A stretch of DNA of 33,623 bases from a virus, in IMG/VR virus record IMGVR_UViG_3300035698_011402. One strand, 5' to 3'. The position numbers were made by a program, and so were the translations under genes. This document shows positions 1 to 24,991 of the stretch, piece after piece; position 1 is the first letter of the stretch; every line of letters starts with the position of its first letter. The notes under the pieces were generated by a model. It did no database searches and was not told the DNA's origin. It saw only the letters and a program-made list of their open reading frames with translations.

Positions 1-112
1 AGCCATAGAATGTAAAACGCTCCTACGTTGCTTTGACATCGGAATTTTACGATTTTAGAATAAACATAACTAACAATTTGTCATCAGGCAAATAATTATA
101 TGGAGGAATATT

Positions 113-328
113 ATGCCCGAAGAAATGCCAGAACTTAAGACAACAGAGCCCTTAATGTCAGAGATTATCGAAAAATTAAAAAAAGATGTGGGCATTCTGA
201 AAGTAGAATCAAAAGTTCTAATTAGAACCGTTGATAATTTAATGAAAGATGTTGATGCATTAAAGAAAGATAATGTTGTTTTTTCGATGTCTTTGAAAAG
301 AATATTGGAAAAAATAAATCTGAAATAA
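113..328 (+). CDS. hypothetical small protein (coiled-coil-like, K/E-rich)
   Basis: ORF with GGAGG RBS 8 nt upstream of ATG; TAA stop. Confidence 0.55.
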   Translation: MPEEMPELKTTEPLMSEIIEKLKKDVGILKVESKVLIRTVDNLMKDVDALKKDNVVFSMSLKRILEKINLK

Positions 329-420
329 CGTTTAATTGCGGGTATAATTTAATGGTAGAATCTGTGGTTTCCAACCATATCGTGTCAGTTCGATTCTGAC
401 TACCCGTACCAAGGAGAAAA

Positions 421-627
421 ATGTTTAAATTTGTATATTCTTACGCTGACGGTGAACCCCCTGAAGCAATGTATTCTAAAGCCAATAATATAACTAATGC
501 AAATAATGAATGGTTGCAATTCAATAATAAACATGATAATATTCTTTTAGCAATTTTTAAAAACGAAAAAGAAATATATCACGACAAACGTAATGAAACA
601 GGATATAATTTAAATTATATAAAATAA
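421..627 (+). CDS. hypothetical protein
   Basis: ORF preceded by AAGGAGAAAA RBS; tightly spaced with next gene. Confidence 0.55.
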   Translation: MFKFVYSYADGEPPEAMYSKANNITNANNEWLQFNNKHDNILLAIFKNEKEIYHDKRNETGYNLNYIK

Positions 628-629
628 TT

Positions 630-959
630 ATGAAACTTATTGGACATAGAACAGGATGGGTGAACAAAAAAGGAATGTCTTCCGTACAAATTTGGACATA
701 TTTTAACGCTCAAGACTCCAAATGTCTTGGAACGTTATATATGCCATTGTCTCATATGCAAAATAGTTCGAGTTTTGAAGTTACGGAATCTGATTTTAAA
801 GGATTAGAATTTAGAGAGTCTAATTACCAATACGAACAAATAAATGACAAAGATTCTGATCAAATGAAGAAAGTTAAGCTAGAGAAAAAAAGGATTTATG
901 ATTTATTGCAAGGAGCATTGAAAGAAATAAGATCTTTTAATAGCGTCATAATTGAATAA
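630..959 (+). CDS. hypothetical protein
   Basis: ORF starts 3 nt after previous stop (operon-like packing). Confidence 0.5.
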   Translation: MKLIGHRTGWVNKKGMSSVQIWTYFNAQDSKCLGTLYMPLSHMQNSSSFEVTESDFKGLEFRESNYQYEQINDKDSDQMKKVKLEKKRIYDLLQGALKEIRSFNSVIIE

Positions 960-963
960 ATAC

Positions 964-1046
964 GACAGTACGGCGGGGACGGTCCCCGGAGGCAACCCGC
1001 AGCAATGCGGACCTCGTGAACATGGTTCGACTCCATGGGCTGTCGC
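964..1046 (+). ncRNA. tRNA-like RNA lacking a canonical anticodon loop (7-bp acceptor stem, consensus T-arm CATGG-TTCGACT-CCATG, anticodon-arm analog capped by GCAA GNRA tetraloop, no encoded CCA)
   Basis: Hand fold: CGACAGT(963-969) pairs GCTGTCG(1039-1045); hairpin CGGGGA-CGG-TCCCCG; hairpin CCGCA-GCAA-TGCGG; T-loop TTCGACT with G53:C61. Confidence 0.45.
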
Positions 1047-1111
1047 TTTAAATAATAAATCTTGCAATGCTATCAGTCTATGGTATATTACGATAATTGT
1101 AATGGAGAAAC

Positions 1112-1342
1112 ATGGATAAAGATCACGATAACGATGGAGAATGGTATGAAAAATGGCTTTCTGAAAGAATTCCTTTAGAAACAGATTGGGATTACCTTTG
1201 GTACAACGTTATGGTTTTGCAAGGGAAGTCTAGAGAAGAAATAGATAAGTCAAAAATAGAATACTTCATGGAAAGCGATAAAGCATTTGAAGAAAGATTT
1301 GGGAAAATTGATTTTTCAAAAATACCAGTATGGGAACCATAA
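1112..1342 (+). CDS. hypothetical protein
   Basis: ORF with GGAGAAACATG RBS. Confidence 0.55.
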   Translation: MDKDHDNDGEWYEKWLSERIPLETDWDYLWYNVMVLQGKSREEIDKSKIEYFMESDKAFEERFGKIDFSKIPVWEP

Positions 1343-1362
1343 TTGTTAATCGGGAGAAAATA

Positions 1363-1809
1363 ATGAGTCTATACGATGAAATGAAACAACGAATTATTGA
1401 ATGTATGAAAAATGGACACTCGACAGAGCGTGATGTTTTAAGAACTCTGATCGGAGAAATCCAATCTAAGTCTGTTAGTACTGGAAAAGATATTAGTGAT
1501 GAAATTGTCGAAAAAACTTTAATCTCATTTAAATCAAACGCAGAAGAGTGCGTAAAACATATTGATTCTTCTGCGTTTCTGTCAGACTCTTTGGATTATA
1601 TGTTTGAGATTGATATTTACAATAAGTATCTTCCGCAATATGAAACTGTAGAGAGTATAATCGAGTTATTGTCTCCTAATATTGAACAATTGAAATCTGC
1701 TAAGTCTGATGGTCCCGCTACAGGAATGGCAATGGGGATTTTGAAAAAGTCAGGAGCTAAGGTTCAGGGCAAAGAAGTTTCGGAGGCTGTAAAGACAATT
1801 AGGTCATAA
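1363..1809 (+). CDS. GatB/YqeY-domain protein
   Basis: From ATG 1363 with GGGAGAAAATAATG RBS: MSLYDEMKQ...LRTLIGEIQ...YLPQ...GMAMGILKK pattern matches YqeY/GatB C-terminal domain family (about 149 aa like B. subtilis YqeY); track ORF 1330 probably starts too early. Confidence 0.65.
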   Translation: MSLYDEMKQRIIECMKNGHSTERDVLRTLIGEIQSKSVSTGKDISDEIVEKTLISFKSNAEECVKHIDSSAFLSDSLDYMFEIDIYNKYLPQYETVESIIELLSPNIEQLKSAKSDGPATGMAMGILKKSGAKVQGKEVSEAVKTIRS

Positions 1810-2119
1810 AAATATTAGTACCAGATTTTTCACCTAGAAAAGAAGGGGAACCCACATTTACCGAGTTCTTCAATTCTCCTGAAGTTTTAAAAAGAAGACA
1901 ACAATTGGTAGATGCAATGGAAGAAGAATTTAAAGAGACATGCAGAAAGTTTGATGAAATATATATTCAAGCTGTGATTGCAGCGAATAAGAGAAATAGC
2001 ACTGCTGGTATACCTCAGTTGGAAGAGGAATGACAATGTGATTGTAAATAAAAAGAAGGAAAGCCGTAAACGCATATCGAACTATTAGTATAAGACAAGA
2101 ATACCAATAAGGAGGTTCA

Positions 2120-2764
2120 ATGATGCGAAAAGGCATGAGTTATTCGGAAGCAGGCAAAAAGGGATATTTGGCAAGTGTGTCAAAAATTAAAGAGAATGCA
2201 AAAAGAAAAAAAGAAGACTACAACAAAAGTCCTAAGAGATGTAAATATTGCAATTTAAAAATTTCTTTTGAAAAGAAACAATTAAAGTTTTGTAATCATT
2301 CATGTTCTGCATCATATAACAATCGTGGGATAAGGAGACATGGCAAAGAACCATCAACATGTCTATTTTGTGGCGAAAAACTTTCTAATTCTGTTAAGAA
2401 ATATTGTGGGTTAGATTGTCTTTCTAAATACAGATGGAACCAAACAAAAGAAAAAATAAGAAATGGTGTTTATCATTATGGGTTTTCTACGGGTAATCAA
2501 ACGCTTAAAAAGTTTTTAATTGAAGAAAGAGGATACAAGTGTGAGCAGTGTGGATTATCAGAGTGGCTAGGGGAAATTATACCATTGGTATGTGATCATA
2601 TAAGCGGTGATTCATCTGACAGTCGAGTTGAAAATCTAAGAATTATTTGCAATAACTGTGATTCTATCAGTTCAACTTATAAAGGGAGAAACAGAGGAAA
2701 AGGAAGAGCCGCAAGAAGATTGTATCGTAAGGAATACGAAAAGGAACATGGTTTTTATTATTAA
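2120..2764 (+). CDS. HNH homing endonuclease (Cys-rich, C-terminal HNH motif)
   Basis: CEQCG...LVCDHISGD...NLRIICNNCD HNH core plus several CxxC pairs; AAGGAGG RBS. Confidence 0.75.
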   Translation: MMRKGMSYSEAGKKGYLASVSKIKENAKRKKEDYNKSPKRCKYCNLKISFEKKQLKFCNHSCSASYNNRGIRRHGKEPSTCLFCGEKLSNSVKKYCGLDCLSKYRWNQTKEKIRNGVYHYGFSTGNQTLKKFLIEERGYKCEQCGLSEWLGEIIPLVCDHISGDSSDSRVENLRIICNNCDSISSTYKGRNRGKGRAARRLYRKEYEKEHGFYY

Positions 2765-2772
2765 GGAGACAT

Positions 2773-2967
2773 ATGGAAACAGTAACATTAGATGAAAAAT
2801 GGACAGAAGTATTGAAAGGAATGCCAGAAACAGGAATGGGATTTCAGCATGTCACTATTGCCTTTTCAGAAGGTGATTCATTTGACGGAACCGTGTTAAA
2901 CGGAAAATTTCTTTTAAATGGAGATGGATTACAACTGGACAAGATTCAAGACATAAAGACAAGATAA
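2773..2967 (+). CDS. hypothetical protein
   Basis: ORF with AAGGAGACATATG RBS. Confidence 0.5.
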   Translation: METVTLDEKWTEVLKGMPETGMGFQHVTIAFSEGDSFDGTVLNGKFLLNGDGLQLDKIQDIKTR

Positions 2968-2973
2968 AAGTAT

Positions 2974-3092
2974 GCGGAGGTAGCTCAATTGGAAGAGCAC
3001 GTTAATGTACAACCTGTATTGAGGTTGTCTACAGCAATTAAAAATGCCTTATAAGCACGTGGTTGTAGGTTCGAGTCCTGCCCTCCGCACCA
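2974..3092 (+). tRNA. tRNA with non-canonical ~45-nt insertion between D-arm and T-arm (119 nt incl. encoded CCA); isotype unresolved
   Basis: Perfect 7-bp acceptor GCGGAGG/CCTCCGC + A + CCA; D-arm TAGCTCAATTGGAAGAGC; T-arm GTAGG-TTCGAGT-CCTGC; anticodon stem candidate CACGT/ACGTG encloses 52 nt containing a 7-bp hairpin ACAACCT-GTATTG-AGGTTGT. Confidence 0.5.
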
Positions 3093-3103
3093 TAATTTAA
3101 TAT

Positions 3104-3180
3104 CCGCCGGTAGCTCAGTTGGTAGTAGCATCTGACTTTTAATCAGAGGGTCGTGGGTTCGATCCCCACCCGACGGACCA
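3104..3180 (+). tRNA. tRNA-Lys(UUU)
   Basis: Cloverleaf by hand: acceptor CCGCCGG/CCGACGG (one C-A mismatch), D-arm TAGCTCAGTTGGTAGTAGC, anticodon stem TCTGA/TCAGA with loop CTTTTAA (U33, anticodon TTT, A37), T-arm GTGGG-TTCGATC-CCCAC, encoded CCA. Confidence 0.8.
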
Positions 3181-3185
3181 TTTTA

Positions 3186-3297
3186 GGATTGAGATAGCTC
3201 AATGGTAGAGCACTCTATGTAAGAATCAGTCATATATGGGAAACCTGTGATTGGACATAACAGGAGATATCAGGTTCGAATCCTGTCTTCGTCACCA
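3186..3297 (+). tRNA. tRNA-like gene with insertion / possibly degenerate (good D-arm and T-arm, 3' CTTCGTC-A-CCA, but no 5' acceptor partner found)
   Basis: D-arm TAGCTCAATGGTAGAGC at 3195-3212; T-arm TCAGG-TTCGAAT-CCTGT then CTTCGTCACCA; about 70 nt instead of about 27 nt between D-arm and T-arm; 5' strand GGATTGA is not complementary to the 3' strand. Confidence 0.35.
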
Positions 3298-3316
3298 CCG
3301 TCACCATCGTAACCAT

Positions 3317-3393
3317 GCATCAGTAGCTCAATTGGTTAGAGCCCCTGCTTGCCAAGCAGGAGATTGAGAGTTCGAGTCTCTTCTGATGCTCCA
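3317..3393 (+). tRNA. tRNA-Gly(GCC)
   Basis: Acceptor GCATCAG/CTGATGC + U + CCA; D-arm TAGCTCAATTGGTTAGAGC; anticodon stem CCTGC/GCAGG loop TTGCCAA (anticodon GCC); T-arm AGAG-TTCGAGT-CTCT. Confidence 0.85.
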
Positions 3394-3403
3394 AATTTAA
3401 ATA

Positions 3404-3431
3404 TTGACCATTGGTAATTCAATGGTATAAT
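3404..3431 (+). promoter_or_regulatory. sigma70-type promoter TTGACC-16-TATAAT
   Basis: Near-consensus -35 (3404-3409) and perfect -10 (3426-3431), 16-nt spacer, directly downstream of tRNA cluster and upstream of next CDS. Confidence 0.6.
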
Positions 3432-3464
3432 AGACCCTTAACAATAGAAACTAAGGGATATCCA

Positions 3465-3782
3465 ATGAACGACGCAAACGACAAAGTCTCGAAGGCTGTT
3501 ACCGATAAAGCCTTCACCGCTTGGCGAAAAGATGCCGACAGAAGAGCAATTGATGGCTTTAAAAGAAGTGCAGCCAATTTTGCTAATCCAGACATTCAGA
3601 CCGAAACACAAGGTCCAATACAAATAAGAACCTGCAAAAATGGTCATAGATGGGAATTACAACGAATGTTTCGTAGAGATCCCGAGGCAACGTACCCTTT
3701 TGAGGGGAACTCTTGGACGGATGGAAGTTTGACATGTCCTGAGTGTGGAGAATATGCCGTTAGTAGCACAACAAAGGAGTAA
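3465..3782 (+). CDS. small zinc-ribbon protein
   Basis: Start moved to ATG 3465 with AAGGGA RBS (track ORF start at 3411 overlaps the promoter); C-terminal CKNGH...CPECGEY motif. Confidence 0.55.
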   Translation: MNDANDKVSKAVTDKAFTAWRKDADRRAIDGFKRSAANFANPDIQTETQGPIQIRTCKNGHRWELQRMFRRDPEATYPFEGNSWTDGSLTCPECGEYAVSSTTKE

Positions 3783-3918
3783 TCTATGGCAAAGCTAATA
3801 TTTGAAAATTTAACATCAGATAACTTCTTAAAAGATGGAGAAGTTATTGAAAAAGAAATTGATACGATTAAAGATTTTGCAATGGATGATTGTGATATAT
3901 TAATTTAAGGTAATAATT

Positions 3919-4554
3919 ATGAGAGAATTTAAAGAATATGAAAAAGTAAACTCCGTCATTGCGTCAATGCATGAGATACTGAATGTAAATTCACACATTG
4001 ATCGCATATGGAGCAAAGAACAAGAAACTTATGAATTCTTCAAGGATGGAAAGTTGTTTCTTCAGTGGGGTCCGTGGGAGATGAATAATAATTTTAATGA
4101 CCCTGACAGATACTTTCTAGTTTTAAAAGATGGAGATTCAAAAGATTGGGGAAAGTTCTTTTTCAGGGATTGGTACGATTTTACTTCCGAAGAGGTTAAA
4201 CAGCAAATGTCTCTTCTTCTTGGGGAAGATTACACCATCAAGACTCATTTTGACTTTATCAAAGAGATTCTAGATAAAGTCGATACAAAGACATATCATG
4301 AGTTGGATAACTACGATTTTGAAAGTCTAGTCCATTTGGTTTACGGACATAATTATGAATTTGTCGCAGATGTAGAATGCGGTAATGATTCCAGCCATAC
4401 TTTCAGTGTTGACGGGGAAGTATATGATACGAATGGCGTAGAGGCATTTAAGACAACGGGACGTTATTCTTATCTTGCTGGCGACCTTTTGAACGATCTA
4501 GCTGCTCAAGGTACGCTCCCTAAGGGCGAATGGATAATCGGGGTATGCTGGTAA
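3919..4554 (+). CDS. hypothetical protein
   Basis: 211-aa ORF, TAA stop. Confidence 0.55.
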   Translation: MREFKEYEKVNSVIASMHEILNVNSHIDRIWSKEQETYEFFKDGKLFLQWGPWEMNNNFNDPDRYFLVLKDGDSKDWGKFFFRDWYDFTSEEVKQQMSLLLGEDYTIKTHFDFIKEILDKVDTKTYHELDNYDFESLVHLVYGHNYEFVADVECGNDSSHTFSVDGEVYDTNGVEAFKTTGRYSYLAGDLLNDLAAQGTLPKGEWIIGVCW

Positions 4555-4663
4555 TAATGACTTTACATTTTTGGGATATTTGGTATTGTATAAACATAAT
4601 TTAAATGCGGGTGGCTTCGGAGAAAGCGTTATGGAGGACAACCTTCACACTCGCTCCATTTAA

Positions 4664-4740
4664 GGGCCTTTAGCTCAGTTGGTTAGAGCACTGGACTCAT
4701 AATCCATGCGTCGGGGGTTCGAGTCCCTCAAGGCCCACCA
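4664..4740 (+). tRNA. tRNA-Met(CAU) (elongator/initiator/Ile-lysidine not distinguished)
   Basis: Acceptor GGGCCTT/AAGGCCC + A + CCA; D-arm TAGCTCAGTTGGTTAGAGC; anticodon stem CTGGA/TCCAT loop CTCATAA (anticodon CAT); T-arm CGGGG-TTCGAGT-CCCTC. Confidence 0.85.
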
Positions 4741-4769
4741 ATTTAATAGAAAAGGATAGAGAAATAATC

Positions 4770-5162
4770 ATGAAAAAAGAGATAATTGAAAAAATCAACA
4801 AAGCGTGTCCTTACGGACAGGGCGTATTCTTTCAGCCTTGGGGAATTCCTGATGGCATCAAAGAACATGTTATTTATTCATCCTATACGACAGGTGGAGT
4901 AAATGGCGGGAGTTGTTGGGAGAGTAGTGATCCTCAGCCATTTCATGAACCTATGCCAAAAGACCACATGAAGGTTCTTGATATTGTACTCACAGAAATT
5001 TCTCCAGATATTTCTTTTTTACAGTATAAAAAAATACAGAATCTCATTAAGTCCAATACAGAATCGCAATGGGAATACTACGGTAATTATACAGATGAAG
5101 TTATAGAATATATCTTAGTGTCCGACTTAGAAAAACTATTGGAAGAATTAAACAAAAAGTAG
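4770..5162 (+). CDS. hypothetical protein
   Basis: ORF; TAG stop followed by in-frame TGA 3 codons later. Confidence 0.55.
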   Translation: MKKEIIEKINKACPYGQGVFFQPWGIPDGIKEHVIYSSYTTGGVNGGSCWESSDPQPFHEPMPKDHMKVLDIVLTEISPDISFLQYKKIQNLIKSNTESQWEYYGNYTDEVIEYILVSDLEKLLEELNKK

Positions 5163-5170
5163 GTAAAACT

Positions 5171-5362
5171 ATGAACGGGTTTTTTACAAAAGGTGTTACT
5201 TCATTATATTGCCCATCATGCATTAAGAAGCCGAAGGGTGTGTTGTTCTCAATGCCTGTATCAAAATTGGCATTCCATTTAGGAATCCAAAAATACAAAT
5301 GCGATAAATGTCATCAAGATTTCGTAGAAAAGGTTGACCGTGACAATCTTTGCGTGCTTTAA
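5171..5362 (+). CDS. small Cys-containing protein
   Basis: ORF, CPSC...CDKCHQ pairs. Confidence 0.45.
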   Translation: MNGFFTKGVTSLYCPSCIKKPKGVLFSMPVSKLAFHLGIQKYKCDKCHQDFVEKVDRDNLCVL

Positions 5363-5389
5363 GAAATTATGAAAGGTAGGAAAACATAA

Positions 5390-5809
5390 ATGTTTGAACG
5401 ACTAACCATCTCCATAGACGGTAATGACTCTACTGAATTTTTTACAAGTTCAGGACTACATCTTGCAACAGGCTATGTTCGAATAGTTATTGGTGGTCGT
5501 GGACCATACATAGAATTTTCGAATGAACAAATTTTGATGGAGAACATTTATGTACCTTCTGACAAAAAGCATAGACTAAACAATTATGCACTATTCTATG
5601 ATGAATGGCGGTCTAGATGTGATTCTAACGTAAAACTATATCATCAAAAGAATACAGTCAGTTATGCGGATTACCTTATTGGAATGTGGTATATCTGTCC
5701 TACGCTCCTAAGCACTCCTGACATTTCTCAACTTCTATCAGAATACGAGGATATTGAACCCGAAGCGGACACAATAGAAGAAATGACATTATTTGACCTT
5801 CTTTACTAA
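5390..5809 (+). CDS. hypothetical protein
   Basis: ORF with AAAGGTAGGAAAACATAAATG RBS region. Confidence 0.5.
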   Translation: MFERLTISIDGNDSTEFFTSSGLHLATGYVRIVIGGRGPYIEFSNEQILMENIYVPSDKKHRLNNYALFYDEWRSRCDSNVKLYHQKNTVSYADYLIGMWYICPTLLSTPDISQLLSEYEDIEPEADTIEEMTLFDLLY

Positions 5810-5816
5810 TTTTAGC

Positions 5817-5844
5817 TTGCTCATGATATATCTTGTTGTATAAT
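5817..5844 (+). promoter_or_regulatory. sigma70-type promoter TTGCTC-16-TATAAT
   Basis: Perfect -10 at 5839-5844 with -35-like hexamer and 16-nt spacer, just upstream of membrane-protein ORF. Confidence 0.45.
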
Positions 5845-5851
5845 AGATGAC

Positions 5852-6142
5852 ATGAAGTCAAAATTGAAAATATTAGATTACCTATGGAAATATTTCTTTT
5901 TTTGGATAGTTGCCTCCATTTTTTATGTTTTACAGATGACCTTGATAAGCATAGTATCTCTAGTATCTTTTATTATGTATGTTATTCTTTATGTTGTGAC
6001 ATTTCCATCTGAAAGAAGAGAAGGTTCGGAGTTACCATTCTTTCAAGGATTATTCGGATTGCTTTTTGATCATGTATTCTACACGATATGTTGTCATCGC
6101 GAGGCATGCATAAACTGCGGATTTATTGAAGAGGAATGGTAA
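5852..6142 (+). CDS. small integral membrane protein
   Basis: Two long hydrophobic stretches (FFFWIVASIFYVLQMTLISIVSLVSFIMYVILYVV). Confidence 0.55.
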   Translation: MKSKLKILDYLWKYFFFWIVASIFYVLQMTLISIVSLVSFIMYVILYVVTFPSERREGSELPFFQGLFGLLFDHVFYTICCHREACINCGFIEEEW

Positions 6143-7767: not shown

Positions 7768-7962
7768 ATGAAGACCGTAGCACTTGAAGATATATATGTC
7801 TCAACTATTTTGACATTTTGCGAGAATGCAGCCGAACTTGGATGCCCTCGGGACAAAGACGTTGATATGTGGTTCAGGGAACTCTCTCTCGAAGATGCCA
7901 GAAAAGTGGCTCAAAAAATGTTTGACATTGAAGAAAGACAAAGTAATGAATTACAATCCTAA
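7768..7962 (+). CDS. hypothetical protein
   Basis: ORF with CAAGGAGAAATACAATG RBS. Confidence 0.55.
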   Translation: MKTVALEDIYVSTILTFCENAAELGCPRDKDVDMWFRELSLEDARKVAQKMFDIEERQSNELQS

Positions 7963-8656
7963 AACAATATCAGTTGGTGAACATTTTGAGGACTGTCGCT
8001 ATCATCCATGTCTTTGCGTATGGGTTGATCCTGACGACTATACTCACATCAAGGGCAAGTCATTAGTCAACATGAGTGAAGGGTGTTGTTCTATTGGTCA
8101 TTGTGGTATCGTCGCATTTACTAAAGAAGAGGCTTTAGACGCCCAGCGTCAGTGTAATGATATTGGTTTCGATGAATATGTAAACAAAAGAGAAAAAGAA
8201 GAAAATATCGCTCGAAGCGATGCGACCCTGACAATCATGGTAGGATTGCCTAGGTCAGGTAAAACCACATGGATTAAAGAAAACCTAGAAGACAACATTG
8301 TTGTAAGTAACGATTGGATTCGGGAAAACATTCTTCAAGCTCCGTACAGTGATGCAATCAAACCTACAATATGGATGATTACTGATGCGACTATCAGAAT
8401 ACTTTTATCTCAGGGTAAAAATGTTATACTTGATGGCACTAATGTAAATCCTTTTGAGAGGAAGTTCTTTGTTGAGCTGGCTCGGTCATGCCATGCCGCC
8501 ATTCGCATTGTTCACATAACAACCTCTTTAGAGGTTTGTCTACAGAGAAATAAAACTCCTGAAGGGCATAAGCTTCATGGAGATTACTTGATGGGTGTGG
8601 CTAGTAGATTCGTTCTTCCAAAAACACACGAATATGATTCTTTAATTTGTATCTAA
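7946..8656 (+). CDS. polynucleotide 5'-kinase (T4 Pnk kinase-domain-like P-loop protein) with Cys-rich N-terminal domain
   Basis: Walker A GLPRSGKTTW, then ...VVSNDWIRENI...VILDGTNVNPFERKFFVELA...RIVHITTSLEVCLQRNKT, matching the T4 Pnk kinase domain order (GCPGSGKSTW...NINRDDYRQ...ISDTNLNPERR...); start uncertain (7826 or 7946). Confidence 0.65.
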   Translation: MNYNPKTISVGEHFEDCRYHPCLCVWVDPDDYTHIKGKSLVNMSEGCCSIGHCGIVAFTKEEALDAQRQCNDIGFDEYVNKREKEENIARSDATLTIMVGLPRSGKTTWIKENLEDNIVVSNDWIRENILQAPYSDAIKPTIWMITDATIRILLSQGKNVILDGTNVNPFERKFFVELARSCHAAIRIVHITTSLEVCLQRNKTPEGHKLHGDYLMGVASRFVLPKTHEYDSLICI

Positions 8657-10513: not shown

Positions 10514-10873
10514 TTGGATGATAGTAAGATGAAACCACTAAAAGTAACTTACGTTAACGGCATGGTATGTATAGACAATGATGATATTGCATTTGGGTGG
10601 ATACCCAATATGTATACAGAAAATAGATCGGGTATTGCTTTACAAATAAATCCAAACATCAACGAACCTGCTTGTGAGAAAATGTGTGCAAAAATTGCCG
10701 AAGCAGTAACAGAATTCAATACACACGACGAAGAAAAACTGTTAAAATTAGCCAAAGCCTACGAAGACGCTCAAGAAAACGACCATTGCCTCATTAGCAA
10801 ACATGAGTGTGAAGGTATGAGTCCATATGAAATAGCGAACTTAATTATACGAGAAATATACGAGGAACAATAA
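10514..10873 (+). CDS. hypothetical protein
   Basis: ORF. Confidence 0.5.
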   Translation: MDDSKMKPLKVTYVNGMVCIDNDDIAFGWIPNMYTENRSGIALQINPNINEPACEKMCAKIAEAVTEFNTHDEEKLLKLAKAYEDAQENDHCLISKHECEGMSPYEIANLIIREIYEEQ

Positions 10874-11688
10874 TGGAAGCATTATGGGCAATACAACAGA
10901 ATATCATGCGTCCCGAACGCTACTTTGCAGTACTTAATGCATGTAAGTACATGGATATACCTCACACAGTATTTAGAGCCTATCCTGACGAACCATCAGA
11001 ACTCGCCAAAAAAGGCTATAGTGAACTTCCCGGTTTTACATACGAAGGACCAACTGTCTTTTGTTCGACCACCTTTGTTGTTCGTAGAGTCCATGAAAGC
11101 GGGTTGTGGAAACCCGGCGTCTATTTTGATGCTGACAACTTCACGGTTAAAGCCTACAGAAAGAATTATGGACCTAACTTCTTAAATGGTGGAGGAGAGA
11201 TAACAACATTGGGAGAGTTTATTGCATCCGACAGAGACCCCGAAGACAAGTTTTTTATTCGTCCTGTCAAAGACCTAAAAGAATTCACAGGTCTTGTCGT
11301 ACAATTTAAAGAGATGCTTGAGTGGGACCCTGCTTCAGACTCAAGAGACTATGCTACTCCTAAAACTGAGATTATTGTAAGCGAACCCGCAGAAATTAAA
11401 AAAGAGTGGAGAGTCGTATTTGTAGATGGCAAGTATTGCAGCGGGAGCAAATATATTGAAAACCACAAACTTTGCGTAGACAGAAATGTAGATGACGTAG
11501 TTAAGACTTATGCTCAAGACATGGCTGATATGTGGTGTCCTGCCCCCGTTTTCGTAATGGACATTTGTCAGCTTGACAATGAAACCTATAAGGTATTAGA
11601 ATGTAACTGCTTTAATTGTTCGGGATACTATGCAGCAGACATCCCCAAAATAGTCAAAACCGTTACTGAGTTTGCATCTCAAGAATAG
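10873..11688 (+). CDS. putative ATP-grasp-like domain protein
   Basis: C-terminal ...WRVVFVDGKYCSG...PVFVMDICQLDNETYKVLECNCFNCSGYY resembles an ATP-grasp C-terminal subdomain (E/N metal ligands); assignment is tentative. Confidence 0.4.
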   Translation: MEALWAIQQNIMRPERYFAVLNACKYMDIPHTVFRAYPDEPSELAKKGYSELPGFTYEGPTVFCSTTFVVRRVHESGLWKPGVYFDADNFTVKAYRKNYGPNFLNGGGEITTLGEFIASDRDPEDKFFIRPVKDLKEFTGLVVQFKEMLEWDPASDSRDYATPKTEIIVSEPAEIKKEWRVVFVDGKYCSGSKYIENHKLCVDRNVDDVVKTYAQDMADMWCPAPVFVMDICQLDNETYKVLECNCFNCSGYYAADIPKIVKTVTEFASQE

Positions 11689-12905: not shown

Positions 12906-13286
12906 ATGAAGATTATAGTTATGGTTGCAGACTTAAAGAAAAGATGCCAAGAAGTCATCGCTAATGTAGAAGATGCTCAGAAATATGAGGACGACGCAGC
13001 ACTAGATAAAGAAACAGCTACTCGTTCTACTCGAAGATCTTTTTGGATGTTTGGAAGTAAAGTCCATGTGGAAGTCGATAGAGAAGCTTTACGCAAAGAA
13101 ATGATAAAAGCTTGCAGTTCTGATGGTTGGTGGAATTTTCCCGGTTTTCCTAGTCACATTGGCAATAAATGTAAAACTCAGGCTCAAGCAATCTTAGCGG
13201 CTTTAGAAGGACATCAACTAGATACGATAGAGCTAAGTCATCATGATATAAAATTATTCTCAGCATGGACTCAAAGCGAGCACTAA
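12906..13286 (+). CDS. hypothetical protein
   Basis: ORF with GAAAGGAAAACAATG RBS. Confidence 0.55.
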   Translation: MKIIVMVADLKKRCQEVIANVEDAQKYEDDAALDKETATRSTRRSFWMFGSKVHVEVDREALRKEMIKACSSDGWWNFPGFPSHIGNKCKTQAQAILAALEGHQLDTIELSHHDIKLFSAWTQSEH

Positions 13287-13291
13287 ATAAC

Positions 13292-13882
13292 ATGGGTGAA
13301 AAATACAATATCATCTATGCAGCTCCTCCTTGGCTCGAACGAGGGGCAGGAAAAGTAAAGCGTGGTGCTGATCGTCATTATCCATTGATGAAGACTGCTG
13401 ATATTTGTGAACTACCCGTTTCTGAACTCGCTGACGAAAATGCTCATTTATATATGTGGGTTACAAATAACTTTTTACCTGATGGACTTAAGGTTATTGA
13501 CGCATGGGGTTTTCGCTACATTACCATGATAACATGGGTGAAAGACAAAATGGGATTGGGGCAATACTTCCGAGGAAAAACAGAGCATTGTATGTTTGCC
13601 GTAAAAGGGATGTTGCCATACAAGCTTAATGATAGTGGTGGGCGTTGCCAATTCCCTACTGTATTCTTCTCTCGTAGAGAGCGTCATTCATCAAAGCCCG
13701 AACAGATGAGAGAAATTATAGAACTTGTTAGTGGGAAACCCGACAGAAAGAAAATAGAGTTATTTGGTCGTTCTAAGTCTCGTGGATGGGACATATGGGG
13801 CAATCAAACAGAAAGAGCAGACGTTGGTATGTTTGCGGATATGAAAGAACCACACGTTCAGGAGATTCCTAATGCCATGTAG
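13292..13882 (+). CDS. MT-A70 family N6-adenine methyltransferase (DNA MTase-like)
   Basis: IIYAAPPW (DPPW-type catalytic motif) near the N-terminus and HSSKPEQMREIIE near the C-terminus, typical of MT-A70/Dam-like methyltransferases; start chosen at ATG 13292 after the upstream stop. Confidence 0.7.
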   Translation: MGEKYNIIYAAPPWLERGAGKVKRGADRHYPLMKTADICELPVSELADENAHLYMWVTNNFLPDGLKVIDAWGFRYITMITWVKDKMGLGQYFRGKTEHCMFAVKGMLPYKLNDSGGRCQFPTVFFSRRERHSSKPEQMREIIELVSGKPDRKKIELFGRSKSRGWDIWGNQTERADVGMFADMKEPHVQEIPNAM

Positions 13883-15832: not shown

Positions 15833-16612
15833 ATGAATTATAAAAGACAATATGAAAATTTAATAGAGAGCAGAAGAGGACGGATAAAAGACGACAAGGA
15901 ATTATATGAAAAGCATCATATAATTCCAAAATGCTTGGGAGGAACAGACAAATCTAAAAATATAGTCCGTTTAACATTCAGAGAACATTTTTTGGCACAT
16001 AAATTACTTGTGAATATTTCAGAGGGTGTAGACAAAATGAAGATGTCCTATGCATTATTTAGAATGTGTAGACCAAACAATAGCTTCCAATTATATAGAA
16101 AAATAAGCAGTAAAAAATATGACAGAATAAAAAAGGCAACTCATGCCTCAATTAGTGGGGAAAACGCATCTTTTTATGGCAGAAGACATACCGAAGAAGC
16201 GAAACTGAAGGTGTCGATTTCACAAACTGGTGAAAACAATTCAATGTATGGTAAAAAAGCTTGGAATAATGGCTTGACAAAAGAAACTTCTGACAAGGTT
16301 AAAAAGCTAGCCGAAGAGCATTCTAGAAAATGGAATAATGGAGAGATTGACACATCCAATATCGGATATAAGACAGACGAAGGCAGATTGGCGATTTCAA
16401 ATGCTCAAAAGGGGAAAGCAAAATCAGAAGAAACAAAGAGAAAAATATCGAATACTTTAAAAGGCAGGAAGCAATCAAAAGAATCGGTGGAAAGAAGGAT
16501 ATCTCTATTAAGGGGTAAAAAGCAAAAGACAGTAACCTGTCCCCATTGTGGAAATAGTGGTGGAACAGCAATGTACAGATGGCATTTTGATAATTGTAGG
16601 GAGATAAAATAG
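15833..16612 (+). CDS. HNH homing endonuclease with NUMOD3-like repeats
   Basis: HHIIPKCLGG...LTFREHFLAH HNH motif; repeated EN(A/N)S(F/M)YG(R/K) and TKRKISNTLKGRKQS DNA-binding repeats; AAAGGAG RBS. Confidence 0.75.
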   Translation: MNYKRQYENLIESRRGRIKDDKELYEKHHIIPKCLGGTDKSKNIVRLTFREHFLAHKLLVNISEGVDKMKMSYALFRMCRPNNSFQLYRKISSKKYDRIKKATHASISGENASFYGRRHTEEAKLKVSISQTGENNSMYGKKAWNNGLTKETSDKVKKLAEEHSRKWNNGEIDTSNIGYKTDEGRLAISNAQKGKAKSEETKRKISNTLKGRKQSKESVERRISLLRGKKQKTVTCPHCGNSGGTAMYRWHFDNCREIK

Positions 16613-17070
16613 TGGAAACAAAACAAGTAATCGTAATTAGAACTAAATACCCTCATCCCACGAAAGAGGGGGAATTCTTAAAACCAAGATCCGTAAAACT
16701 CATAGCCCAAGGGGCACATGCCTCCATGAAGGTGTTCTTTGACATGATGGAACATAGTTATGGATTACATACGGGTAAGAATGGCGGACAATATGAGTAT
16801 CGTTTAAGACTTCCCGAAGGGGAACTCGGTGACGCCATGAACGCATGGATGAATGATGAATTATTTACAAAAATAGTTGTATCGGTTAAATCCGAGGAAG
16901 AGCTATTAGACATTGTCGCTCAAGCAGAGAAACAAGGATTGCCATGTGCTTTGATTATTGATGCAGGAAAAACAGAATTTGATGGAGTTCCTACAAAAAC
17001 ATGTTGTGCTATTGGACCATGCAATGCAGAGCAAATTGACAAAATAACAGGGGAATTACCACTATTATGA
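16612..17070 (+). CDS. peptidyl-tRNA hydrolase, PTH2 family
   Basis: GTG start overlapping HNH stop (TAGTG); KQVIVIRTK...KLIAQGAHAS...IVVSVKSEEELLDIVAQAEKQGLPCALIIDAGKTEF...CCAIGPCNAEQIDKITGELPLL matches the PTH2 consensus over its whole length. Confidence 0.75.
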   Translation: METKQVIVIRTKYPHPTKEGEFLKPRSVKLIAQGAHASMKVFFDMMEHSYGLHTGKNGGQYEYRLRLPEGELGDAMNAWMNDELFTKIVVSVKSEEELLDIVAQAEKQGLPCALIIDAGKTEFDGVPTKTCCAIGPCNAEQIDKITGELPLL

Positions 17071-21399: not shown

Positions 21400-21813
21400 A
21401 TGATTATGAAAAGATATAAAGTCAAAGAAGGAATACCTGTTGAGATTTGTAATAGTTATGGACAAGTTACTATATCTATAGGAAAAAATGGTTATGCATG
21501 TGGACTTGAAGCAAAGCTAGATAAAAACGTTGCTATTGAAATCAATGACTTGGGAATTAAAGTAACTGGTGGAAAACGAATATCCGAAGGAGTATTTAAA
21601 CCATACGATCTAAAGATGGAAGAACTGTATGAATATGTTCATACAAAAAAAGCTGTAAGATTTAAAATGTATAGAACTTTTAAGTTTTGGAATTGGTGGA
21701 AAACAGAAGACATTGTTGATTCTTGGTTATTATGTAAAGAACGAATTCCGTATACGTTCTTCGCAACAAAATATTTTCTTCAGATGAAAAGTGAGTTAGT
21801 AGAGGAATACTAA
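21400..21813 (+). CDS. hypothetical protein
   Basis: ORF with AAAGGATGATTATG RBS. Confidence 0.55.
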   Translation: MIMKRYKVKEGIPVEICNSYGQVTISIGKNGYACGLEAKLDKNVAIEINDLGIKVTGGKRISEGVFKPYDLKMEELYEYVHTKKAVRFKMYRTFKFWNWWKTEDIVDSWLLCKERIPYTFFATKYFLQMKSELVEEY

Positions 21814-22253
21814 TGTTAAGCGAATCTTTTAAAAAACGAATTAGTAAGAAGCTGAGTTACATCCTTCGTCATGACCCTGCCTCAGCTAATATTGAACTTG
21901 ATGCAAATGGTTGGGCAGATACTAATGCCATTCTTCGTGCCTTAAAGGTTTCTCCTGCGGAACTTGTCGAAGTTGTTGAAACAAACGACAAACAGCGGTT
22001 TGCTTTTGATGACTCTAAAAACGGTATAAGGGCTAGTCAAGGACACTCTATTGAAGTAGATTTAGATTTACCTGAGGCTTGCCCCCCAATTGTTCTATTT
22101 CATGGTACTGCCGACAAGAATATCAAGGTTATTAAGGAAGAAGGTCTAAAATCCATGAATCGTCAGCATGTGCATCTATCTGATGACCCTTCGACTGCTA
22201 CGAATGTTGGCTCTCGTCACGGAAATCCTGTTGTCATGATTATTGATGCATGA
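21813..22253 (+). CDS. kptA: RNA 2'-phosphotransferase, Tpt1/KptA family
   Basis: LSKKLSYILRHDPASANIELDANGWADTNAIL...RASQGHSIEVDLDL...LFHGTADKNIKVIKEEGLKSMNRQHVHLS carries the diagnostic Tpt1 motifs (SK.LS..LRH, GW, SQGHS, HGT, R.HVHL). Confidence 0.75.
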   Translation: MLSESFKKRISKKLSYILRHDPASANIELDANGWADTNAILRALKVSPAELVEVVETNDKQRFAFDDSKNGIRASQGHSIEVDLDLPEACPPIVLFHGTADKNIKVIKEEGLKSMNRQHVHLSDDPSTATNVGSRHGNPVVMIIDA

Positions 22254-23469: not shown

Positions 23470-23970
23470 ATGGACAAACTCAATCAAATATTTTTCTTAT
23501 TGATCGCAAAAGACCGAATAGAAACTCCAGAGGGGTTATATAATGAACTGAGTAAATTAATGACAAATGATTTATTCGGGTTAATGGGTGATGATTGGGA
23601 CATTGCAAGAGTTAATGCTGAAAAGCCTCATATGCAAAATGCATTAAGTGATGTTGCATATTTAATGACAGCAAAATGCATAGACCATCGGCTTGCAAAA
23701 ATGATTCTTTCAGAAGCTTGGGACACAGACCAATATGTTTGGGATCTTTATCGGTATTTGAAAGACTCTAAGATATTGGAAGAAAAAGACGGTAATGAGT
23801 TAGATGAAATTCTATCTAAAGTGTTTTCCGAAAACGAAAAAGCCGTTCAAGATATTAAAGACGGTAAAAAGAAAGCAGTTGGTTCGTTAATAGGTCAGGT
23901 TATGAGATTGTCGGAAGGCAAGGCTGACCCAAAAGTGATTAGTAAAAGAATTCTTGAGTTATTGAAGTGA
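23470..23970 (+). CDS. GatB/YqeY-domain protein
   Basis: C-terminus KKAVGSLIGQVMRLSEGKADPKVISKRILELL matches the GatB/YqeY C-terminal helical domain signature. Confidence 0.6.
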   Translation: MDKLNQIFFLLIAKDRIETPEGLYNELSKLMTNDLFGLMGDDWDIARVNAEKPHMQNALSDVAYLMTAKCIDHRLAKMILSEAWDTDQYVWDLYRYLKDSKILEEKDGNELDEILSKVFSENEKAVQDIKDGKKKAVGSLIGQVMRLSEGKADPKVISKRILELLK

Positions 23971-24602: not shown

Positions 24603-24960
24603 ATCAAGAATGGAAAGTGGAGTTTTCGTCCAAGACGATAAAGCTTGGACATTTCAAAAGATGTTTGAAGATAGTTACAATGGTAAATTTACTTTGCGTG
24701 AAGTTCTTGAACATCTTAAAGCATTACCTGACGAAGATTTAGATCTACCTATTATTGGGTATAGCTCGGATGAAGGATGTTTTGGACCACGTACTCCTAG
24801 TTTCGAAAAAGTGATTCTTGTTAATTGTAAAGCTTCTGATAGTAAATATCCTATTGTGATTATAGAAGACGAACTAGATATGCATCAAGACTACGCTAAA
24901 CATTTGGGTGCAGAATTTGAAGTTTTAGAAAAATTGGATGCAATTGAAATTATTTCTTGA
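24571..24960 (+). CDS. hypothetical protein
   Basis: ORF overlapping the previous gene end. Confidence 0.45.
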   Translation: MMREEVFVMGKSRMESGVFVQDDKAWTFQKMFEDSYNGKFTLREVLEHLKALPDEDLDLPIIGYSSDEGCFGPRTPSFEKVILVNCKASDSKYPIVIIEDELDMHQDYAKHLGAEFEVLEKLDAIEIIS

Positions 24961-24984
24961 TTTTATGAATATGTATAGTATAAT
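24957..24984 (+). promoter_or_regulatory. sigma70-type promoter TTGATT-16-TATAAT driving the downstream structured RNA
   Basis: -35 at 24957-24962, perfect -10 at 24979-24984, 16-nt spacer; no ORF follows for about 370 nt. Confidence 0.55.
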
Positions 24985-24991
24985 GAGGACT

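Follow-up and report, generated by a model that had tools for sequence, protein, structure and literature searches.

Phage arrays of transfer RNA (tRNA) genes are currently read as codon-usage aids or as spares against host tRNA-cleaving defences. Some tRNA-shaped RNAs do not decode at all: mascRNA, which is eukaryotic, is released from a longer transcript by RNase P and RNase Z, and YrlA RNAs, which carry a tRNA-like module, occur in bacteria and phages. Among tRNAs with unusual geometry, the metagenomically discovered allo-tRNAs combine an ordinary anticodon loop with a long variable (V) arm and with a branch of 12 bp that is divided 8/4 or 9/3 (Mukai et al. 2017, NAR, PMC5389517). Irregular tRNAs have been described in phage tRNA clusters, some of them suggested to be inactive in translation and perhaps to serve as non-coding RNAs (PMC5389517), and a small tRNA-like RNA of Bacillus cereus with non-canonical charging, tRNA-Other, offers a bacterial precedent for activity outside ordinary decoding (cited in PMC5389517). 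Here, we describe an element at positions 963–1046 (plus strand) of a 33,623-nt viral sequence, IMG/VR record IMGVR_UViG_3300035698_011402, the whole of which is referred to as the window. The element is a real, conserved and structured gene for a tRNA-shaped, non-decoding RNA found in the clusters of tRNA and transfer-messenger RNA (tmRNA) genes of uncultivated phages, and no earlier description of such an RNA was found in the literature searched.

The cloverleaf is both the minimum-energy and the centroid structure of window positions 960–1050 (plus strand), with an energy of −38.1 kcal/mol and 47% of the ensemble. Its parts are as follows.

963 to 971, plus strand: 5′ strand of the acceptor stem; C963-U969 and C971 are paired and A970 is bulged (covariance-model alignment to homologues)
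972 to 973, plus strand: GG linker at the site of tRNA nucleotides 8-9, invariant in 5/5 members and unforced by the search pattern
974 to 988, plus strand: counterpart of the D arm, stem CGGGGA/UCCCCG of 6 bp closed by the 3-nt loop CGG (minimum-energy fold, family-invariant)
989 to 1015, plus strand: long arm at the anticodon-arm position, an interrupted hairpin (minimum-energy fold)
989 to 992 with 1012 to 1015, plus strand: base of the long arm, GAGG/CCUC, invariant in the family
993 to 996 and 1011, plus strand: hinge of the long arm, CAAC/A, one of two subtypes in the family
997 to 1001 with 1006 to 1010, plus strand: distal helix of the long arm, CCGCA/UGCGG, 5 bp
1002 to 1005, plus strand: GCAA tetraloop capping the long arm
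1016 to 1020, plus strand: variable region GUGAA, 5 nt (GUGAA, GUGUA or GGGAA in homologues)
1021 to 1037, plus strand: T arm, 5-bp stem CAUGG/CCAUG with the consensus loop UUCGACU
1038 to 1045, plus strand: acceptor helix, 3′ strand, directly abutting the T stem
1046, plus strand: C at the discriminator position, not conserved among homologues

An initial annotation, made from the letters alone, had described a compact 6-bp/3-nt hairpin in place of the D arm, a long interrupted hairpin with a GCAA cap in place of the anticodon arm, a consensus T arm and no encoded CCA, and had proposed RNA folding as a check. All of these parts are recovered in the minimum-energy fold, and the 3′ flank reads CUUUAAA (C1046 followed by UUUAAA). 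Its 7-bp acceptor stands as a helix and had to be redrawn in detail: the minimum-energy fold alone pairs 963–969 with 1039–1045, whereas the homologues support 8 bp (C963-U969 and C971 with G1038-G1045), a bulged A970 and a GG linker in place of 7 bp, a 4-nt linker and an unpaired G1038. It also overlooked the resemblance of the D arm and of the 8/5 geometry to selenocysteine tRNA (tRNA-Sec) and allo-tRNAs. The T-loop region GGTTCGACTCC at 1024–1034 has the GTTCRANYC-type tRNA sequence and the acceptor strands pair, but a canonical 5-bp anticodon stem with a 7-nt loop (U33, anticodon 34-36) is absent, as is a long variable arm. The GG of the CGG loop could supply the G18/G19-to-T-loop contacts of a tRNA elbow.

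Relatives were recovered by scanning a metagenome collection for the D hairpin GGGGANGGTCCCC, a gap of 20–50 nt and the T loop GGTTCGANTCC. The scan returned 29 loci of three kinds: tRNA-Sec-like genes (anticodon UCA, GCA or ACA), allo-tRNA-like genes (anticodon UGA, many of them in AT-rich phage tRNA arrays), and five loci, with four distinct sequences, that match the element over its whole length.

L083, 371 to 464: homologue of the element
L089, 2528 to 2625: homologue of the element
L100, 754 to 846: homologue of the element
L102, 1571 to 1669: homologue of the element, identical to the copy in L106

Together with the window copy, these five independent sequences make up what we call group A. 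Membership is defined by an 8-bp acceptor, GG, CGGGGACGGUCCCCG, GAGG-(hinge plus variable closed helix)-CCUC, GNGNA and the UUCGACU T arm, and by a score of at least 70 bits on two covariance models, R1, built from the family, and R2, built from the four homologues only, without the window. Scans with ACGNCGGGGANGGTCCCCG, CGGGGANGGTCCCCGGAGG and CCTCGNGNANNTGGTTCGACTCCA detected no group A member in IMG/VR or in 185,579 species genomes; all scans used fixed patterns with a gap of at most 50 nt, and longer arms or altered D hairpins lie beyond their reach. When IMG/VR was scanned for GGGGANNNTCCCC combined with the T loop, most of what came back belonged to an unrelated family made up of a hairpin and a tRNA fragment; the loci L053 and L032, described below, were also recovered. 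The exact D-region 18-mer gave only three chance matches in IMG/VR, in GC-rich phages. Megablast of window positions 1–6000 and blastn of the element found no match among GenBank phages, and no further group A member was found in Rfam 15, GenBank phages, IMG/VR or the GTDB species genomes. The flanking 109-aa open reading frame (ORF) had no homologues in these searches, and the matches of a 76-aa ORF were spurious and of low complexity.

All group A members fold into one common four-way junction, in the order 8-bp acceptor, GG, D hairpin CGGGGACGGUCCCCG, long arm, 5-nt variable region and T arm; the long arm joins the D hairpin without a spacer, and the T arm directly abuts the acceptor 3′ strand. 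On a model-based alignment of the five sequences, 98.3% of cells are paired, and compensatory changes are seen in 10 of the 23 pairs, comprising all eight acceptor pairs and two T-stem pairs (both in L102, GUUGG/CCAAC). None of 500 shuffles reached the observed pairing values, and slid controls were 37–54% paired. The D hairpin and the GAGG/CCUC base never vary and are silent on pairing, and their invariance indicates sequence constraint. At least 17 of the invariant core positions are unforced by the search pattern, namely those in GG, C974/G988, the loop C, GAGG/CCUC and G.G.A and in part of the T stem; in the acceptor stem, by contrast, substitutions have reached saturation. The initial annotation had named covariance with homologues as a check and a lack of conservation as the outcome that would speak against it; the reverse was found, with four independent homologues that show covariation in the acceptor and T stems. 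The features by which tRNA-handling enzymes know their substrates, namely the acceptor/T stack, the T loop and the D hairpin, are likewise conserved or covarying, in line with its suggestion that tRNA-binding enzymes could recognize the RNA.

Model R1 scores the group A members at 81–106 bits, the window element at 81.0 bits, and everything else in about 325 kb of tRNA-rich loci, including tRNA-Sec-like genes, allo-tRNA-like genes and ordinary tRNAs, at 37 bits or less. On R2, the window element scores 71.4 bits (rough E ~9e-18), against 17.5 bits or less for the window's own tRNAs, although this recovery is not a fully independent test, the homologues having been retrieved with a window-derived pattern. 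Standard tools miss such genes. Within the window, ARAGORN and Rfam report five tRNAs and a tmRNA, with one extra tRNA match from Rfam, and neither makes a call at 963–1046; on the 211 nt around the element, the Rfam tRNA model (RF00005) matches nothing at E values up to 10. The best permissive Rfam scores there are 17.1 bits for mascRNA (gathering score 42.5) and 14.8 bits for tRNA-Sec (gathering score 47), and the YrlA model (RF02553) has no match over window positions 900–1110 at E up to 10.

The anticodon arm is replaced in group A by a longer closed hairpin of which only the base and the hinge are conserved. The hinge occurs in two subtypes, U-G-U/C in L083, L089 and L100 and CAAM/A in the window and L102, and beyond it the distal helix is kept as a helix while its sequence, length (5 to more than 9 bp) and loop all differ among members. 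Across the five members, the distal loops are GCAA, UGAC, ACAAC, UUUG and GGUUAAAG (4, 5, 4 and 8 nt in the homologues), with no common sequence; the whole long arm spans 9–14 bp, and a 7-nt anticodon loop is present in no member. Because the helix at the anticodon position varies in length, sequence and loop, the RNA cannot decode, and the earlier claim of a tRNA-shaped RNA unable to decode now extends to five members. An SRP-RNA-like (signal recognition particle) or kink-turn (K-turn) identity of the long arm was considered and rejected, its distal sequence being unconserved and showing no tandem G·A pairs by eye.

Several genes in the same phages do carry inserts in the anticodon arm. The window has a tRNA gene at 2974–3089 (plus strand) that scores 47.2 bits on the Rfam tRNA model and is missed by ARAGORN; its acceptor, D and T arms are canonical, its anticodon arm measures 54 nt against the 11 expected, and the 3′ part of that arm contains GC-CUUAUAA-GC, a loop with anticodon UAU. 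The gene resembles a tRNA-Ile(UAU) that carries about 43 nt of a non-group-I insert. Between tRNA-Lys and tRNA-Gly, at 3188–3293 (plus strand), lies another insert-bearing tRNA-like gene (28.9 bits, just below the tRNA gathering score); its D and T arms are canonical, its acceptor stem is weak, and the insert measures about 35 nt. Short anticodon-arm inserts recur in these phages, since L083 also has a 94-nt 'tRNA-Phe(GAA)' at 872–965 (minus strand) whose D arm is canonical and in which 18 nt inserted after CUGAA extend the anticodon arm into a long helix with a GCAA cap. The window encodes Tpt1/KptA (21813–22253) and a PNK-like kinase (7826–8656), and together with the inserts these raise the possibility of protein-mediated tRNA splicing or repair in the phage.

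The element itself might then be a functional decoding tRNA with a removable intron or extension in its anticodon arm. The neighbouring tRNA genes with 18–45-nt inserts in the window and L083, and the presence of Tpt1 and the PNK-like kinase, would suit this explanation, and ARAGORN forces the L100 copy into a 'tRNA-Thr(CGU)' call. We nevertheless consider it very improbable: the fold proposed for L100 is not drawable for any other member, no heptamer resembling an anticodon loop is common to the members, and removal of the distal hairpin leaves a loop of 4-5 nt (CAAC+A or UGU+C) in place of a 7-nt loop with U33. Moreover, by established tRNA knowledge, a 13-bp acceptor/T stack combined with an arm of 9–14 bp misfits ribosomal geometry, and the misfit of a 13-bp acceptor/T branch to ribosomal and EF-Tu geometry is part of the tRNA-Sec knowledge reviewed in PMC7609411.

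In the window, the element lies within a 152-nt gap between ORFs 630–959 and 1112–1342, on the strand that carries essentially all genes. It is also the sharpest GC island there, with 0.69 over 70 nt against a mean of 0.38 for the window. It starts 4 nt past the stop codon of the upstream ORF and is followed by a sigma-70-like site, TTGCAA-16-TATATT, at 1062–1089; no intrinsic terminator is predicted at the site. In the other carriers, it keeps the company of tRNA and tmRNA genes, with an orientation and spacing that match the neighbouring tRNAs. The L102/L106 copy lies inside an array of 27 tRNA genes, in the same orientation, with its acceptor ending 5 nt before tRNA-Ala; the L083 and L089 copies lie 0.4-1.3 kb from a phage tmRNA gene and accompany other odd tRNA-like genes; and the L100 copy is near tRNA-Val.

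The presence or absence of the element can be followed in one pair of phages. L154 is a close relative of the L089 phage (89% identity in a neighbouring protein, alignable flanks), and against it L089 and L156 show a clean insertion of 153 nt, made up of a leader of about 57 nt and the group A element, that stops exactly where the acceptor stem does, at its 3′ end. Because this cassette is cleanly present in L089/L156 and absent from L154, the element is a discrete accessory unit, gained or lost like the tRNA genes of phage arrays.

Just upstream of this insertion site lies a conserved, irregular tRNA-like gene, here called 'X' (L154 2594–2669 and L156 ~1650–1735, both plus strand). Its D arm looks canonical, its loop NGAGAAN, with G and not U at position 33, is carried on a stem of 3-4 bp, and a small extra hairpin is capped by GNRA; its T stem and anticodon-like stem covary between L154 and L156, and ARAGORN reports one copy as tRNA-Ser(AGA).

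The position of the window copy, 4 nt after the stop codon of ORF 630–959 and upstream of a promoter-like site with no intrinsic terminator predicted, would suit a cis-acting processing or stability element, in which RNase P cleavage or 3′-end punctuation, or protection of the 3′ end of the upstream mRNA, is the function and the released RNA has none. An unrelated anticodon-less tRNA-like element in L032 and L095, about 45 nt upstream of an ORF that is followed by a sub-threshold twister-P1-like match, also fits this idea. Yet the L102/L106 copy sits between tRNA genes, where RNase P sites are already supplied, and the flanks of L154 are intact without the element, which is therefore not needed for its neighbours' expression there; this weakens a pure processing-signal role. 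RNase P recognition relies on the acceptor/T stack, which would leave the invariant 21-nt D region, the GAGG/CCUC base and the hinge subtypes unexplained, and the conservation of the core exceeds the needs that we would expect of RNase P recognition. We therefore regard a processing element as unlikely.

The L032 element (1547–1628, minus strand; equal to L095 9093–9174) consists of an acceptor of 6 bp, the hairpin GGGGA-UGG-UCCCC, another hairpin of 12 bp and a T arm, and its downstream ORF encodes 160 aa; the twister-P1-like match past this ORF (L032 944–995, minus strand) scores 48.6 bits, below the gathering score of 67.2. Two RNA-processing-type elements may thus bracket one gene in L032.

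A further gene found in these searches bears on the origin of the family.

L053, 1450 to 1531, minus strand: tRNA-Tyr(GUA)-like gene within a GC-rich array of 18 tRNAs carried by an IMG/VR phage

The D arm of this gene is of the tRNA-Sec type and identical to that of the window element, as are its ACGS-CGGGGACGGUCCCCGG segment and T loop, but the gene keeps a variable arm and an ordinary anticodon loop; it goes undetected by ARAGORN and reaches 31.4 bits with the tRNA-Sec model. Over the stretch that runs from anticodon arm to T arm, it is similar to annotated phage tRNA-Tyr genes (Mycobacterium phage Rey, Bacillus phage Deep Blue), whose D arms are ordinary. It is a possible evolutionary link to group A. 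By this route the element could also be a decaying, functionless pseudogene of a tRNA-Sec-like or allo-tRNA-like phage tRNA of this kind, its anticodon arm destroyed: the decoding-type L053 gene shares the ACGS-CGGGGACGGUCCCCGG segment and the T loop, the distance from D arm to T arm is similar (33 nt in L053, 32 nt in the window), and the element is accessory, being absent from L154. Neutral decay, however, would not give compensatory changes in all eight acceptor pairs, keep 98% of cells paired, or exchange the anticodon arm for a stable paired helix five independent times, and we hold this explanation to be quite improbable. L053 also has an amber-suppressor-type tRNA (CUA) at 3018–3092 (minus strand), making it a second phage with such a tRNA and the same unusual D arm. 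The window has its own at 31330–31403 (plus strand, anticodon CUA, labelled 'Pyl' by ARAGORN), which hints at TAG reassignment or read-through in the window phage.

From these sequence comparisons, we consider it moderately probable that the group A RNA is a stand-alone, tRNA-processed and non-decoding mimic of tRNA. It would be co-transcribed with its same-strand neighbours, in the same orientation as the flanking tRNAs, and released as tRNAs are, by RNase P at the 5′ end and by 3′ trimming, with CCA possibly added after processing. The conserved upper body, consisting of the acceptor/T stack, the elbow, the D hairpin and the junction, would mimic tRNA for a factor that recognizes its shape and is blind to the anticodon, and the long arm may serve as a structural strut or spacer that also excludes the RNA from the ribosomal decoding site. 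The invariant D region, base helix and hinge argue for recognition by a dedicated, if putative, factor. The most likely roles would be those of a decoy or titrator of a host protein that targets or senses tRNAs, or of a ligand for the phage's own tRNA-handling proteins.

More specifically, and only tentatively, group A may consist of purpose-built, anticodon-less mimics that travel as mobile accessory genes in tRNA/tmRNA cassettes and act as decoy, ligand or aminoacyl carrier. As a decoy, the RNA would titrate away some host factor by which tRNAs are attacked or sensed at the acceptor end, elbow or D arm; defence toxins that modify or cleave the acceptor end would be examples. As a ligand, it would be the dedicated RNA partner of the phage YqeY/GatB-domain, PTH2, Tpt1 and PNK proteins, and as a carrier it would bring an aminoacyl group to the same proteins. 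The gene set of the window comprises five tRNAs, the tmRNA, the amber-suppressor tRNA, Tpt1/KptA, the PNK-like kinase, PTH2 (16612–17070), two YqeY/GatB-domain proteins (1330–1809 and 23470–23970), an R2K ATP-grasp protein (10873–11688) and a Major Vault Protein (MVP)-like protein; an MT-A70 methyltransferase is encoded at 13265–13882. The MVP-like protein (28754–31273, plus strand; 839 aa) has Major Vault Protein shoulder and repeat domains (2.4e-27), and the idea of a vault RNA that it prompted was dropped, no supporting link having been found.

Several observations weigh against a mimic with a function of its own. What goes beyond folding and conservation is inferred, the expression and processing of the element as an RNA of about 85 nt being predicted. 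The family is small, with five independent sequences, and its invariance in the D hairpin (12 nt) and T loop (10 nt) is partly a matter of ascertainment, these having formed the window-derived search pattern; the acceptor covariation, the junction and the hinge are outside that pattern. In the window copy, the long arm is the shortest of the family and the acceptor stem is bulged. L154 keeps both flanks without the element, which is dispensable at that locus. No conserved protein partner was found: the ORFs of the window have no homologues on the other carrier contigs, where most genes are ORFans and DUF551 was the only Pfam match. The nearest detectable relatives of the window phage, recognized by their YqeY proteins (55–71% identity; 10 loci from marine and other metagenomes), have no element within 6 kb of that gene. 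Finally, the single-sequence statistics are modest: the fold-energy z-score, which the initial annotation had offered as a test against shuffled sequence, is −2.28, better than most shuffles but with 7/200 folding equally well.

Were the element no more than a GC-rich fold arisen by chance, or an attP-type piece of a host tRNA gene, that would explain the z of only −2.3 and the opposite strand, which is about equal in fold energy; GC-rich palindromes such as GGGGACGGTCCCC do arise by chance in GC-rich DNA. But homologues with covarying stems exist, and the element reaches 71.4 bits on the model built without the window. An attP fragment would not have both acceptor strands, as the element does, and there is no host tRNA for the element to derive from because none of the 41 matches of its core 19-mer in the 185,579 species genomes is tRNA-shaped; IMG/VR yielded none either. 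We find such an origin barely credible.

The mimic reading has consequences for why phages carry tRNA arrays. A conserved array gene with every tRNA feature except decoding suggests that phages may exploit the tRNA shape itself, and if the group A RNAs do act as decoy, ligand or carrier, they would represent an RNA-level counter-defence or regulatory device distinct from the supply of replacement tRNAs. The family, although small, is real, specific and testable.

Other unusual RNAs accompany the tmRNA genes of these phages. In the window, a second anticodon-less tRNA-shaped element, of a different sequence family, lies at 26203–26272 (plus strand), 7 nt after the tmRNA (25836–26196). It has a 6-bp acceptor, a 6-bp/3-nt hairpin GGAAUA-AGC-UGUUCC, a hairpin CUUUGU-UAU-ACAAAG that can be drawn with 6 bp and a 3-nt loop or with 5 bp and a 5-nt loop, a T arm CUAGG-UUCGAAU-CCUAG and an encoded ACCA; its fold z is −2.73, and neither ARAGORN nor Rfam calls it. 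Downstream of the pair, at 26286–26374, is a tandem repeat with a 34-nt unit, AAGTAATGTAAGTTGACGAAGTAACTAAGTGGGC (2.6 copies, 92% matches). Upstream of the tmRNA, about 870 nt (24960–25836) hold no ORF of at least 100 aa and no Rfam match and show several GC-rich islands, and may contain one or more structured RNAs. In L083, between two tRNA genes near the phage tmRNA (1130–1218, minus strand), a highly stable 10-bp hairpin is followed by an acceptor/T-arm minihelix with CCA, UGCCCCG-GA-GGCGG-UUCGACU-CCGCC-A-CGGGGCA-CCA, with a fold z of −5.4.

Compared with described systems, the upper scaffold of group A is of the tRNA-Sec/allo-tRNA type, with an 8-bp acceptor on a 5-bp T stem, GG and a 6-bp D stem. 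The likeness to tRNA-Sec (RF01852) lies in the 13-bp branch formed by the 8-bp acceptor and the 5-bp T stem, the 2-nt linker, the consensus T loop, and a 6-bp D stem with a very small, GG-containing loop that abuts the next arm without an intervening nucleotide; the model alignment gives the element this geometry (8/5 branch, 6-bp D stem, small loop), and the hairpin GGGGA-YGG-UCCCC is the D arm of tRNA-Sec-like genes from the same scan. In contrast to tRNA-Sec, the element has no 7-nt loop, UCA anticodon, long variable arm (its variable region is 5 nt) or conserved G73, its D loop is 3 nt against 4, and its 14.8 bits fall well short of the gathering score of 47. With allo-tRNAs, it shares the long D stem with a tiny loop, the longer acceptor, the discovery in metagenomes and, for some, the location in phage tRNA clusters, and a GGGGA-NGG-UCCCC D hairpin also occurs in the allo-tRNA-like genes from the same scan (L081, L084, L085 and others). 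Group A differs from them in its 8/5 branch (13 bp), its 5-nt variable region without a V arm and its lack of an anticodon loop, and the allo-tRNA-like genes do not exceed 37 bits on the group A model.

The remaining systems are more distant. mascRNA/MEN-beta (RF01684), to which the initial annotation had likened the element, is also tRNA-shaped and non-decoding and gave the best weak Rfam match, but its anticodon stem-loop is short and it lacks a D arm of the tRNA-Sec type, and with 17.1 bits against a gathering score of 42.5 the element does not belong to that family; mascRNA is a mechanistic analogy and not a relative. The suggested Y-RNA-like identity fares no better, there being no YrlA match even at the permissive threshold. 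YrlA is likewise non-coding and contains a tRNA-like module made up of T arm, D arm and acceptor-like stem, but its topology is the opposite, the RNA ending in a long Ro-binding stem and the acceptor-like stem being closed by a loop, whereas in the element the long arm is closed and the acceptor open; moreover, no Ro/Rsr gene was seen. The tRNA-like domain of tmRNA resembles group A in lacking an anticodon and in its tRNA-like processing, and group A is co-located with phage tmRNA genes; the domain, however, has no D stem and carries a G3:U70 alanine identity pair, whereas in group A the D hairpin is strong and a G:U is not conserved at the corresponding position, and the element lacks an mRNA-like part. 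tRNA-Other retains an anticodon-type arm. Group A is best described as an anticodon-less derivative of the tRNA-Sec/allo-tRNA scaffold that falls outside the defining tests of both families, and it extends this structural class to a member without an anticodon.

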